In this document: piece by piece, positions 2,856-58,537 of the stretch
Position numbering within the stretch: position 1 is the first letter of the stretch
Layout: each line of letters starts with the position of its first letter
DNA from: Microcoleus sp.
GTDB taxonomy: Bacteria > Cyanobacteriota > Cyanobacteriia > Cyanobacteriales > Microcoleaceae
Assembly: GCA_042408215.1 (NCBI GenBank)
Contig: JAYFMW010000017.1
Span: forward strand, 128,001 to 192,000
Length of the DNA stretch: 64,000 nucleotides
Direction: 5' to 3'
Notes under the pieces: model-generated
What the model was told of the DNA's origin: nothing
Seen by the model: the letters and a program-made list of their open reading frames with translations, nothing else
The model's database searches: none
Position numbers and translations under genes: made by a program

Positions 2856-3262
2856 CAGAAAAATGGGTTGGAAACCCCGTCCTTATAGGACGGCTTTATA
2901 TTGAATTTGGATACCATTACCGCCTTGGAGTTGCTTGAATCGGTGTACTTTTGTGTTGTACTTTCAACGGGACAGTTACCGTTTCAAATCTCACAACCCT
3001 GTACGCATAATGGTTTGCTCTCGCGAGCCTCCCTTGCGGGGTAATATTAGCTTCGCCAATGTTTGGCGTGCTTTTTAAACCTGCAACACTGTTTCAGTGA
3101 CCTTAAAACTGTTTAATCGCAGATGACAGAGCGGAAAACTAGCTTCGCATTCAAGGAGTGTCGTGACTCAAAAAACGTAGTACGCACTGGTACTTAGGCT
3201 GGTCAGGATGGCTTGTTAGATTTCTCTTTCAAGCCTCATGCCTTTAGGCTGAGGTTCCTGAC
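2856..3262 (-). mobile_element. Non-autonomous IS200/IS605-family element carrying a HEARO/omega-RNA scaffold but no iscB ORF
   Basis: Left end TTCAT|cagaaaaatgggttggaaaccccgtccttataggacggc resembles the left end of the tnpB element at 62125; the other end has hairpin cctcatgcctttaggctgagg then ...TGAC; interior aligns with 57218-57465. Confidence 0.8.
3027..3262 (-). ncRNA. HEARO/omega-RNA-like scaffold (IscB/IsrB guide RNA)
   Basis: Minus strand gtcagg..gcttg..caagc..cctgaccagcctaag..ctacgtt..gacac..tgcgaagctagtt..gctctgtc..ttaaacag..cagtgttg..aacattggcgaagc..attaccccgcaaggga follows the HEARO motif order as I recall it; compensatory changes versus the second copy. Confidence 0.78.
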
Positions 3263-54864: not shown

Positions 54865-54997
54865 ATTTTAAATTTGAGATTTGAGATTGACAAATCATAG
54901 GTTTCATCAAAGGAACACGGGATGCGGGAAACTCAGACACGAAGAGTGCTGAGAGGGAAGCGGCGCGAGGGACTTCAGTCCCCTTGTCTTTTCTTTC

Positions 54998-55405
54998 TTA
55001 ATTGGCCGAATGATGCGGGTCTTCTATATATTTTTTCACCACTTCACTACTAATATTACCCGCCGCGATCACAAAATAGCTGCTTGTCCACAAAGAGGGA
55101 AGCTTTTTTAGTTGTGGAAATTCAGATCTTAAATGATGACTGGAGCGACCCTTGAACAACTTAATCACTAGCGCTGGGGTATCTGTTGGCTTAACGGCTA
55201 CAAACAAATGTACATGGTCTGGGGCTACTTCTCAAGCCTGGATGTCCCAACCTTTTTCAATTGATAGTTCTAAAAATATTTGGCGAGTTCTAGTCGCCAC
55301 GTCACCCACTAAAACTTTCTTGCGACGCTTGGGGATAAAGACAAAGTGGTAGTTAAGCAAGAATTTGACGTGGTTATGCGTTTTATATTCGGCTAATGGC
55401 AACAT
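54998..55405 (-). pseudogene. tnpA: Y1 HUH transposase TnpA with an in-frame TGA at 55232-55234
   Basis: YHFVFIPKRRKKVL...IQA*EVAPDHVHLF...KGRSS...LWTSSYF...YIEDP; the two ORF halves are in the same frame. Confidence 0.88.
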
Positions 55406-55507
55406 AAATATTCTGTTGATATAGGTTGACTTATCCACTCTAGTCGCCTAGACTTGACAAATCAACCAGTCTTTAGGAAAATAGAGGTGACTAAAACCCA
55501 AAAAGCC

Positions 55508-56815
55508 ATGGGAGTTCAGCAAGTATTGCTGTCGCCCAATCAGGAGCTTCAAGCATTGTTAGAGTATCTCTGTCAGCAATCTGGCAAGCTTTACAATAGT
55601 GGCGTTTACTTGGCTCGTCAAACTTTTTTCAATACAGGAAAACTGTTGGCTGGAAAGTTTGACTTATCTTTTGAATCGTCAGTTGCGAAGTCAATGGTTG
55701 CTAAGTCGTTGCCATCAACACCAATGCAACAAACATTGATGTCAGTCACGGAAGCCTTCAAATCTTTTAAAGAATTAAGAGATTTGCACATCAAAGGTCA
55801 ATTGCACTTTAAGCCCAAGCCACCAGGATATCTTACGGGCGCTAAGTTGTTCAAAGTAGCTTATCCTAATTCTGGAGGTTTACAGCCTAAACTTGTTGGC
55901 AATCAGTTAAGGTTTTCCTTGGGGTTAACGGTGAAGCGATGGTTTGGAGTCTCTGAATTCTTTCTACCTATGCCATCAAATCTGAATTTTTCAAAAGTTA
56001 AAGAGTTTACAATCCTCCCTAAGAATGGCGCTTTTTATCTGGAAACGTCCTATGAGGTTGAAAAAGAACAACATAATTTGGACATCAATCAAGCATTGTC
56101 AATCGACCTGGGGACTGCTGACAATTTAGCAGCTTGTGTCGATACACTGGGAAATTCCTTCCTGATTGATGCTCGCGCCATGAAAGCGATGAATCAACTG
56201 TGGAACAAAAAAGTAGCAACTAGAAAAGAAGGAAAGCCCGAAGGCTATTGGGACAATTGGTTAGACCGCGTAACTCGCAAACGTAATCACCAAATGCGTG
56301 ATGGTATCAATAAGGCTGCGAAGTTGATTGTCAGTCATTGCTTGAAATACAGCGTTGGGAACATTGTTTGCGGTTGGAATCAAGGTTTTAAATCTCATGT
56401 CAATATGGGCAAAAAGAACAATCAAAAGTTTGTTCAGATGCCTTTAGGAAAGCTTAGAGACAGATTAAACCAACTGTGCGATTTACACGGTATTAAATTT
56501 ACAGAAACTGAAGAAGCGTATACGTCTAAAGCCAGTTTTCTTGATGGAGACTCCCTGCCCAAGTATGGTGAAAAACCGGAAGGGTGGAAAGCATCTGGAA
56601 AACGGATTAAGCGTGGATTGTATCAGTCCGCTGATGGAGTTGTGGTGAATGCAGACTTAAATGGTTCTGCCAACATTCTCAGAAAAGTAGTCAGTAAGTT
56701 AGGTGCAAACCTTGACCGACTGAATAGACGGGTTTTGACGACCGTAGCGAGAGTTAGACTTTGGGTATTACCTAAATCTACTCTGTCTGCAGAATCTCAG
56801 TGGCTTCAGCCCTGA
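55508..56815 (+). CDS. tnpB: TnpB RNA-guided nuclease (no Zn finger; non-canonical RuvC-II)
   Basis: SIDLG (RuvC-I), GWNQG, TEEAYTSKASFLD, NADLNGSANI (RuvC-III). Confidence 0.88.
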   Translation: MGVQQVLLSPNQELQALLEYLCQQSGKLYNSGVYLARQTFFNTGKLLAGKFDLSFESSVAKSMVAKSLPSTPMQQTLMSVTEAFKSFKELRDLHIKGQLHFKPKPPGYLTGAKLFKVAYPNSGGLQPKLVGNQLRFSLGLTVKRWFGVSEFFLPMPSNLNFSKVKEFTILPKNGAFYLETSYEVEKEQHNLDINQALSIDLGTADNLAACVDTLGNSFLIDARAMKAMNQLWNKKVATRKEGKPEGYWDNWLDRVTRKRNHQMRDGINKAAKLIVSHCLKYSVGNIVCGWNQGFKSHVNMGKKNNQKFVQMPLGKLRDRLNQLCDLHGIKFTETEEAYTSKASFLDGDSLPKYGEKPEGWKASGKRIKRGLYQSADGVVVNADLNGSANILRKVVSKLGANLDRLNRRVLTTVARVRLWVLPKSTLSAESQWLQP

Positions 56816-56941
56816 GAGTGTCAAGGTAAAAGAACATTTTTTTTGAGAAATTGACCGAAAGCATCCAGGGTACAAAGCCCCGGATCTATCTGTGGGGTCG
56901 CTTTCTTCAATTCTTCAATCTCAAATCTCCAATCAATTGAC

Positions 56942-57144
56942 CAAAAAACTGGGATACAAGCCCCGTCCTAGAAGGACGGCTTTTTGCTAGAATACAGATA
57001 GTCGCCTCGCGGGCATTGGGAGACTCTAAACGGACGTGGAGCGACGGTAAGACGTACGGACACGGCACTGCCGTGTCCCTGCGGAGCGCGTTGCTATGAA
57101 GCGTCAAGGAATCCTCGGACTTGATAGACGGGGAGGTATGTCAA
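56942..57144 (+). mobile_element. 203-bp ORF-less IS200/IS605 derivative (left end + TnpB reRNA-like scaffold)
   Basis: TTGAC|caaaaaactgggatacaagccccgtcctagaaggacggc ... ggagcgacggtaagac..gcgttgctatgaagcgtcaaggaatcctc..ggggaggtatgTCAA|. Confidence 0.78.
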
Positions 57145-57217
57145 ATTGTTAGCCCAATTCGAGATAGGATAAAGGTCAATTTTGATTGCGGATTTCCATT
57201 CCATTTCTCAAAACATT

Positions 57218-57465
57218 GTCAGTAACTCAGCCCTAAAGGGACTAAGCTTGTAAGAGCAATCAAGCAAGCTGTATTGACCAGCCTAAAGTCTTAACTGACT
57301 ACGTTATTCGAGTCACGACACCCCGGAATGCGAAGCTAGTTCCTTGCTCTGTCATCTGCAATTAAACAGTCTTAAAGTCACGCTCGACAGTGTTGCAGGT
57401 CTAAAAAGCTCAAATAACATTGTCCTGAACCTTGTGAAGGATCGCATTACCCAGCAATGGGTTTG
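57218..57465 (+). ncRNA. HEARO/omega-RNA-like scaffold, second copy
   Basis: gtcagta..gcttg..caagc..tattgaccagcctaa..ctacgtt..gacac..tgcgaagctagtt..gctctgtcatctgc..ttaaacag..cagtgttgcagg..aacattg..attaccc. Confidence 0.78.
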
Positions 57466-57601
57466 GAGACAACCATATCTCCCTAGAGGGGCAACCATAC
57501 CCCTCTACCCCGCAAGGGGATTCACTCTTGACTGAAGTCCCCGAACCGCTTCCCTCTCAGGTCTAAAGACGCTGAGTTTCCCGCATCCCGAACTTTTTTT
57601 T
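57218..57601 (+). mobile_element. Non-autonomous IS200/IS605-family element carrying a HEARO/omega-RNA scaffold but no iscB ORF
   Basis: Scaffold aligns with 3027-3262 (minus); far end read on the minus strand TTCAT|aaaaaaaagttcgggatgcgggaaactcag..ctgagagggaagcgg matches the left end at 54908. Confidence 0.8.
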
Positions 57602-58000
57602 ATGAAGCATTACCTTTCCCGTCTGCTAGCCCTGGTATTAGTTGTGGTCATCGGCGTAGCGGGCTGTACCAATGTTCCAAGCACTCTGAGTGGAGATTAT
57701 CGCCAAGACACATTAGGATTAGTGAACAGCTTGAGAACTGCGATCGCCCTACCAGATGGCGCACCGGAAAAAGCAGCCGCTCAAGCAGATGCACGCAAAC
57801 AAATTAATGATTTTGCCGCTGCTTACCGTCGCGATCCCGCCCTGACAAAGCTTTCATCTTTCACAACAATGCGAACGGCATTAAACTCTTTGGCAGGACA
57901 TTACAGTTCCTATCCAAATCGTCCCGTTCCTGAGAAGTTGAAAAAGCGTCTTGAGTCAGAATTTCAGCAAGTAGAATCTGCTCTGAACCGAGGCTCTTGA
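57602..58000 (+). CDS. psb27: Photosystem II assembly lipoprotein Psb27
   Basis: Lipobox VAGC, LSGDYRQDT and SFTTMRTALNSLAGHYSSYPNRPVP motifs. Confidence 0.95.
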   Translation: MKHYLSRLLALVLVVVIGVAGCTNVPSTLSGDYRQDTLGLVNSLRTAIALPDGAPEKAAAQADARKQINDFAAAYRRDPALTKLSSFTTMRTALNSLAGHYSSYPNRPVPEKLKKRLESEFQQVESALNRGS

Positions 58001-58537
58001 GTTAAAAGTTTTGAGGTGTAGGGCCATCCTCCCGTGGTTGGCAGTTTTGAGTTTTAAGTTATGATTCCCATACTTAAAAGCATCAAAAATTCCAACTCAC
58101 AAAGTCAATATTTAAAGACGAAGGATAAATTTTATGAATTTATCCTTCATCCTTTAAATTTGAGTCAAAACAATTTTAATCTGAAATATCAACTGCTTTG
58201 AGCGCCCACTGTAGCAGGGCGTTTTTTCTGTTATAGCGGTTTTATGAATGAAGTGAGGTACAGGAGGCAATTGGCAATTCACTTCTATGAAAAGGAAACA
58301 TCTATGCCCTATGCCCTATGCCCTATGCCCTATGCCCATGAGCACCTCCAGAAACCTGAGAAAGGCTATAGATTTTTCTCAGCTCGTGGCAATTCATAAA
58401 TTGTCACGCTCCAGAATTTGCATTCTGCGATCGACTTGTGCCATAAATAGATAAACAAAAAAACAAGCAAGTTTGTAGCTGTGCAAAACTGCGCGATCGA
58501 TCCCAAATTTTTCCTAGCAAACCACATTAAATTACCC

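Follow-up and report, generated by a model that had tools for sequence, protein, structure and literature searches.

In IS608-type elements, the insertion target is chosen by a DNA guide in the left end. ISC1-1_MA and IS605B-1_MA of Microcystis aeruginosa have a 5′ GT end and are inserted just upstream of ATGA without duplication, N|ATGA being a known target of ISC elements; ISC transposons carry no transposase of their own and share a left end with oppositely oriented TnpB elements (Kapitonov 2016, PMC4810608). The main text of that paper, on which this comparison draws, does not contain the term start codon. In the available text of Meers 2023 (10.1101/2023.03.14.532601), the IscB omega-RNA elements and PATEs of Geobacillus stearothermophilus take their guide from the flank, tend to lie in the orientation of the upstream gene and have a TTCAT motif at the left end; ORF-less derivatives use proteins in trans. 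According to that text, transcription of the guide has to begin outside the element, so that a host promoter supplies it, and the nuclease, by cleaving the empty site, both keeps the element in place and carries it over to sister chromosomes. So far as these sources go, the element type, the target and the sense bias of the elements considered below have already been published.

An element at the start of psb27, within the 64,000-nt stretch of Microcoleus sp. DNA analysed here (the window), shares these features, retention by cutting of the empty site being a predicted likeness. It differs from ISC transposons (PMC4810608) in that it has no iscB ORF and carries a hairpin module in the slot, and from the Geobacillus elements in its 4-base target and in the displacement, by most copies, of the downstream gene's leader; the available text of Meers 2023 scored the upstream gene only. 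With HEARO RNA (RF02033) it has in common a full-length match above the gathering score and a covarying P1 stem, but no HNH ORF lies downstream of its scaffold and 151 nt of it (module and left end) extend beyond the model.

The psb27 element spans 57218-57601 (+), is 384 nt long and gene-less, and has a T run at its end, with ATGAAGCAT next, at 57602. It is a complete ORF-less IscB-type IS200/IS605 element lying between the psb27 leader and the psb27 ATG without target duplication, its exact boundaries being given by empty sites. The HEARO/omega-RNA scaffold (57218-57450, +), in which the initial GTCA is the transposon right end, matched RF02033 at 120 bits against a gathering cut-off of 83, over the full model (positions 1-211), in an Rfam scan of the window. 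Within its 3′ strand, a short palindromic replacement (57423-57443, +), a 12-nt insertion relative to the Rfam model, leads to one mismatch in a long-range scaffold helix (GCC/GTCC vs GCC/GGCG in most copies). Within these elements, here and in many left ends, one repeatedly finds small palindromic inserts (12-24 nt); these presumably resemble cyanobacterial small dispersed repeats, and our literature searches found no paper on such small repeats. A class I module (57465-57519, +) fills the vacant iscB slot and, according to its fold and a 37-copy alignment, forms a pair of hairpins that both have a CAACCAUA loop, and after them a third with a GCAA loop. The IS200/IS605 left end (57548-57601, −) consists of a hairpin (57556-57576), the DNA guide GAAA (57577-57580 on the minus strand) and an A-rich linker; its motif is common to 55 type-A motif matches, and read on the plus strand it is the new U-rich leader of psb27. 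No iscB homology was found downstream of the psb27 scaffold, and the only ORF inside the element is a spurious one of 63 aa. The element is thus a derivative of an ISC element rather than an ISC element proper, since no iscB ORF lies between its ends, and it fits a non-autonomous (PATE-like) IS200/IS605 element by its shared subterminal hairpin end, its fixed target without duplication and its lack of a gene.

On the host side, psb27 is intact (57602-58000, +; 132 aa), matching PF13326 and, over residues 3-131, positions 2-135 of the TIGR03044 profile. Its first four bases, ATGA (57602-57605, +; TCAT on the minus strand), are both the start codon and the host target of the transposase, as well as the predicted TAM, and are present in all empty alleles of the genus. 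The predicted guide is the last 20 nt of the native leader (57198-57217, +), immediately 5′ of the scaffold, as with the flank guide in the available text of Meers 2023, its length being our estimate; joined to ATGA, this segment gives the sequence of the empty allele. Some 47 nt upstream of the element, TAGGAT (57165-57170, +) is the likely −10 box of the psb27 promoter, as suggested by conservation of GATAGGAT, or a one-base variant of it, in the psb27 leaders of relatives; a sigma-70 scan upstream of the element returned no promoter, the TAGGAT box included. Further upstream and older is a separate ORF-less element, apparently TnpB-type from its ends (56942-57144, +), which follows TTGAC, is absent in G005 and L201 and is present in L202. 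It splits a TTGACA hexamer seen upstream of psb27 in G005, and the region has been hit twice in succession. The window also holds an IS605 element (54908-56824) with a TCAT target, in which tnpA is split into two ORFs and tnpB occupies 55454-56815; a GCATCCCG tail is common to its left end and that of the psb27 element, unlike most HEARO copies, and the psb27 left end may on this account be chimeric.

We located psb27 in 39 of 41 genomes searched and read its leader at 30 loci. The insertion is missing from 20 of 22 congeners, and all seven loci from other families are likewise empty. In the closest relative, G005 (97% nucleotide identity), the leader joins the psb27 ATG directly with no duplication, and leader and ATG are also contiguous in two metagenome contigs with an empty site. 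One empty metagenome contig (L202, 98.5% identical over psb27) already has the upstream TnpB-type element, and the HEARO insertion therefore came later than the TnpB-type one. The same psb27 ATG is occupied in G003 and G017; the G003 element belongs to another subfamily with a class II module and so represents a second, independent event. Since the nearest copy of the psb27 element within the genome is only ~79% identical, its donor is not in this assembly. Together these data identify the psb27 element as a recent insertion of a known element type. To judge from this presence/absence polymorphism alone, TnpA would have carried out its excision and insertion.

The target follows from the left end. 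Of 116 type-B left ends, mostly of TnpB-type elements, 102 had one of four pairings of hairpin-foot guide with target, which together form a code: GAAA-TCAT (17), AAAA-TTAT (30), AAAG-TTAC (49) and GAAG-TCAC (6). AAAG/TTAC, the pair shared with IS608-type elements, is the commonest in this genome and the three variants obey the same rule; the psb27 element differs in having the GAAA-TCAT pair, so that its target reads ATGA on the opposite strand. The base after ATGA at 54 HEARO junctions was A in 31, T in 10, C in 9 and G in 4, a variation that rules out ATGAA as the target. These data show that HEARO elements target ATGA, following the 4-base DNA guide of the left end. The initial annotation had placed both insertions in the window, in sense, at ATGAA start codons; the start codons and the orientation stand, and the target is shortened to ATGA. 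Part of the start-codon effect is therefore a coincidence of sequence, the guide-set target containing ATG.

The second insertion is a 407-nt sister element (2856-3262, −) with a class II module and a type-B left end, adjoining the start of a 452-aa CemA/PxcA ORF; the same site is filled in G005. Its RF02033 match (3041-3262, −; 133 bits) is 77.5% identical to the psb27 scaffold over 209 nt. The covariation of the basal stem, initially noted from these two copies, extends to the family: in 97 of 102 elements fitting the pattern, stem pairs 1-6 were kept in 96-97 copies with several pair types, pair 5 being G-C in 71, A-U in 17 and G-U in 9, and pair 6 U-A in 34, G-U in 28, C-G in 17, U-G in 11 and G-C in 7. 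The class II module in the vacant iscB slot (2900-3030, −), compared with 36 further copies, forms a long covarying helix with a GUAC/GUGC-closed AUUACAAAA loop. Neither module class matched an Rfam family. Class I modules occurred in 19 distinct versions among the copies compared; their covariation is modest, with one pair A-U in 14 and G-C in 4 of the 19 and the second hairpin nearly invariant. In this genome (G000), 33 of 45 CAACCAUA-type loops in a stem lay directly downstream of a HEARO match. A pattern scan, its pattern built from the class I module itself, returned 110 loci, and the 80 titles listed among them named 37 genomes of Microcoleus, Coleofasciculus, Limnofasciculus, Phormidium and other cyanobacteria; a HEARO-like scaffold lay upstream in 92 of the 93 loci with enough flank.

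Proteins that could act in trans are encoded elsewhere in the genome, IscB, an ancestor of Cas9, among them. iscB homology lies downstream of 25 of the 70 HEARO matches (64 above cut-off), and of 16 iscB ORFs longer than 380 aa, 14 have all four scored RuvC/HNH motifs. They include an intact IscB (NF040563, 468 bits) from an element with a scaffold 83% identical to that of the psb27 element, and an intact 135-aa IS200 transposase TnpA (NF033573, 141 bits) is also present. Intact tnpA copies 91% identical to that of the IS605 element at 54908-56824 lie on C13 and C30. By comparison with known scaffolds, that of the psb27 element is predicted to bind IscB and guide cleavage. Some HEARO matches have no Y1-type left end (for example C5:441871, C21:57733, C5:414672, C7:93727); these IscB elements begin GCTATC or GACTTA with no recognised hairpin end and were excluded from all counts. 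At C6:1031175, a site shared with L078 of G005, the element found in G005 resembles another G000 copy (98.6% identity) more than the on-site copy (91%), a difference that points to conversion or replacement. At C6:923558 (L207) and C20:689456 (L208), only a left end or a shrunken element precedes a start codon, as fossil leaders of genes that we take to be hisG-like and GH57-like; in G006 and G002, other elements have inserted at the start of the GH57-like gene.

We next consider the distribution of HEARO junctions across the genome. The 55 HEARO matches with a recognisable left end, plus one added by hand and less two dropped (one at ATGG, one with an unclear 5′ end), gave 54 elements, which were removed in silico; left-end patterns required ATG[AG], and an unconstrained listing gave the same tails. 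All 49,882 ATGA sites were classed by one rule under our own gene model (5,721 genes called), which missed PetL, PetM and DUF4335, and the element list misses degenerate copies. The background comprised 2,190 starts and 13,547 intergenic sites, with 68% of all ATGA sites in coding sequence, whereas the 54 junctions fell at 30 starts, 19 intergenic sites and 5 sites in coding sequence. Called starts thus account for 30 of 49 non-coding junctions against 13.9% expected (P = 2e-14), and 47 of the 49 are at a start or have a same-strand gene no more than 300 nt away, against 55% of the background. Junction ATGs opened ORFs of at least 30 aa in 41 cases, with Pfam matches for 31 of the 39 scanned; 33 of the 54, psb27 and cemA included, opened a Pfam-matched ORF. 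Such targets include S16, an EF-G-type GTPase, PetL, PetM, CbiC, PntA, a signal peptidase and DAHP synthase, and from our reading of the sequences probably also fusA, chlB, rplR, psbD and phoH; the target genes share no function.

The same pattern was seen in other genomes, with these counts serving as replication, without further P values, because kin are not independent. In four congeners, 60 of 71 matches were fetched and 48 had a left end and ATGA; 31 of these 48 junctions corresponded to the start of a G000 protein, five of the 31 being sites shared with G000. In the 110-locus set, a left end and ATGA were present in 81, of which 43 were strict starts, 5 N-extended, 3 unclear, 6 ORFs with no match and 24 without an ORF by our own cut-off, one of the last being petM; a further 7 of 14 loci with variant ends were at starts. 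The concentration on start codons is thus real and strong, as the initial annotation had supposed from its two cases, and by its own comparison of genome-wide copies with the background frequency of the target, starts are far in excess. Its related point that insertion leaves the coding sequence intact also holds, the start-codon copies being all in sense and the psb27 ORF whole. Our literature searches, which covered neither supplements nor the HEARO/OMEGA discovery papers, where a remark may have been published, found no description of this concentration.

Two comparisons within the same genomes bear on its cause. TnpB-type ends with the same ATGA target were at a start in 1 of 10 cases, against 30 of 49 for HEARO elements (P = 0.004), although this control is small and five of the ten are near-identical copies; the single case is a truncated element near C1:114441, at a gene that is presumably PhoH-like. 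The next gene was antisense for 34 of 83 TnpB-type ends (background 43-47%) but for only 3 of 49 HEARO copies (P = 7e-6). TnpB-type elements could have been purged from starts for reasons of their own, which would weaken this control. In Microcystis NIES-843, 46 TnpB copies have this ATGA target. The second comparison concerns ten HEARO loci with a GTGA target (eight distinct sites), of which none was at a recognisable GTG start, while eight had a same-strand gene match up- or downstream or shared a site with such a locus. The family therefore favours start codons but does not require them.

We consider it fairly probable, and the best reading of these data, that an ATGA target is combined with retention of host-transcribed copies through IscB homing in trans. 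A transposase encoded at another locus of the genome likely moved the psb27 element. The persistence of the element is likely due to the psb27 promoter, from which its guide RNA would be transcribed; with that RNA, IscB in trans is predicted to cut empty copies of the site. With a guide drawn from the host flank, as extrapolated from the available text of Meers 2023, only transcribed sense copies would make a guide. IscB would cut the empty allele after excision or on a sister chromosome, and repair would copy the element back. Cyanobacteria are polyploid, which would strengthen such spread to sister chromosomes. Starts would be the largest class of transcribed, non-coding, sense ATGA sites, and survivors would pile up there. 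What is observed is that few copies lie inside genes (5 of 54) or point against the gene that follows (3 of 49), unlike those of the TnpB type. Survival of the host gene would depend on read-through transcription and on the U-rich left end as a passable leader, the psb27 transcript then comprising leader, scaffold, hairpin module, left end and coding sequence. Homing at psb27, cleavage and excision included, would operate by analogy with the described systems. One observation counts against retention, namely the mismatch in a conserved scaffold helix of the psb27 copy. Faster decay of shared insertions was rejected, being seen by substitutions in only two of five. Moreover, transcription may not be the whole story, since starts are enriched even over near-gene ATGA sites.

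RNA data are compatible with read-through. Of 21 RNA runs listed, 7 were examined; assembled contigs give no strand, ends, level or proof of a single transcript, and contig depth was not used as a measure of expression. Exact contigs, which leave strand and ends open, bridge flank and scaffold (57115-57274) in X1, X2 and X6, from three studies; a 592-nt contig of X5 spans 57253-57844, and contigs of X2 and X3 bridge the left end and psb27. The proposal that a host promoter is borrowed for guide expression thus has both these contigs and the available text of Meers 2023 behind it. Some contigs stop at 58034-58117 where X15 continues, a weak hint. One X1 contig, identical over 57253-57582 and then carrying the end of the petL copy, was considered as a second copy and is read as a chimera at a shared 33-base stretch. 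Splicing, as in an IStron or self-splicing intron, was rejected, since Rfam scans found no intron family in the psb27 element and no splice joint was found in X1, X3, X5 and X15, the runs with filled-allele contigs. X8 shows an empty psb27 allele that skips the 384 nt; the skip and a psb27 substitution occur together and are attributed to another strain rather than to splicing.

The strongest alternative, which we nevertheless regard as unlikely, is that insertion itself prefers the neighbourhood of start codons, as unstructured A/T-rich single-stranded or promoter-proximal DNA, with purifying selection inside genes and homing secondary. Ten young copies in G006 (96-99% identical) each precede an ORF of 67-529 aa, six mapping to called starts; such young copies at ORF starts suit a preference at insertion, while under retention ten near-identical copies that all precede ORFs mean that the filter acts fast. 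Enrichment that persists over nearby untranslated sites also favours this alternative: starts exceed ATGA sites within 30-150 nt of same-strand genes in every window (P ~2e-4; 30 of 35 against 56% expected in the 50-nt window, P = 2e-4). These windows include untranscribed DNA, however, and the overall start share of 61% lies between the 56% (50-nt window) and 69% (30-nt window) expected, so that the residual enrichment may be an artefact of the background or a real preference. Recurrent hits point the same way: five starts, psb27 not counted, had received two element types where a uniform draw predicts 1.4 (P = 0.015), giving an effective target pool of ~620 rather than 2,190 starts, and codon adaptation is slightly higher in target genes (0.72 vs 0.70; P = 0.056 in G000, 6e-5 in other genomes). 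Against it, TnpB-type elements that share the target and have related left ends are at background for both starts and orientation, and the TCAT strand is the template strand, not the strand left single-stranded by transcription.

Appreciably less likely still is that the ORF-less omega-RNA elements are a lineage specialised for starts, with IscB tuning dozens of core genes through a mobile, swappable 5′ leader. If true, scaffold and hairpin module would let one host transcript yield both guide RNA and translatable mRNA, and the tuned core genes would include psb27, rps16, fusA, psbD, petL and petM. Slightly more doubtful again is a domesticated regulator, in which scaffold, module or bound IscB would control the stability or translation of host mRNA, a function for which the host would retain the element. 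In its favour, the element is part of the likely psb27 leader, an RNA contig links it to the coding sequence, the twin-hairpin module is conserved across at least 37 named genomes, another lineage has its own, independent psb27 insertion, some starts still carry remnants consisting of a left end only and, as a lead only, the available text of PMC9581776 likens the PLMP domain of IsrB, a relative, to the N-domain of IF3. On the other side, 20 of 22 congeners and the 98.5% identical relative do without the psb27 insertion, the target genes are functionally unrelated and the GTGA sisters bear the same module away from starts. The filled psb27 site is no target for IscB, IscB motifs are mostly intact, and a genome search found no other site with ATGA and at least 10 guide bases. 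Predicted accessibility of the psb27 start is 0.60 empty and 0.63 filled; improved accessibility as a benefit was rejected, the mean falling from 0.55 to 0.48 over 30 starts (P = 0.02). A replacement ribosome-binding site was likewise rejected for type A and B left ends, which have no Shine-Dalgarno motif and median duplex energies of −2.2 and +1.0 kcal against −2.7 and −3.6 for the native leaders. Type C and D left ends, as in the IscB elements C3:80659 and C17:708317, give a strong Shine-Dalgarno-like motif before the host ATG (−10.3 and −8.4 kcal), and in five type C copies a lesion near codon 20 cuts the first ORF short. Control of host translation by the scaffold or IscB, suggested in the initial annotation, is supported by none of the results obtained. 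Least credible of all is tolerance alone, random ATGA insertion with loss of harmful copies and no positive filter, which suits the scarcity of coding insertions (5 of 54 against 68% of sites) and the TnpB-type remnant at a start but predicts 14% at starts and about half antisense against 61% and 6% observed, and needs most intergenic ATGA sites to be harmful, where TnpB-type copies argue otherwise.

The TnpB-type and GTGA controls, in the same genomes, are a natural test of a question posed in the available text of Meers 2023, preferential insertion or retention, and our data favour retention. The analysis also brings to notice two uncatalogued RNA modules. In about 60% of copies a host gene has its native leader displaced, an outcome that we have not found in print; photosynthesis genes, ribosomal genes and others of translation are among those affected, in many Microcoleus-like cyanobacteria, and in these strains many core genes are read through a structured foreign leader of 350-500 nt.
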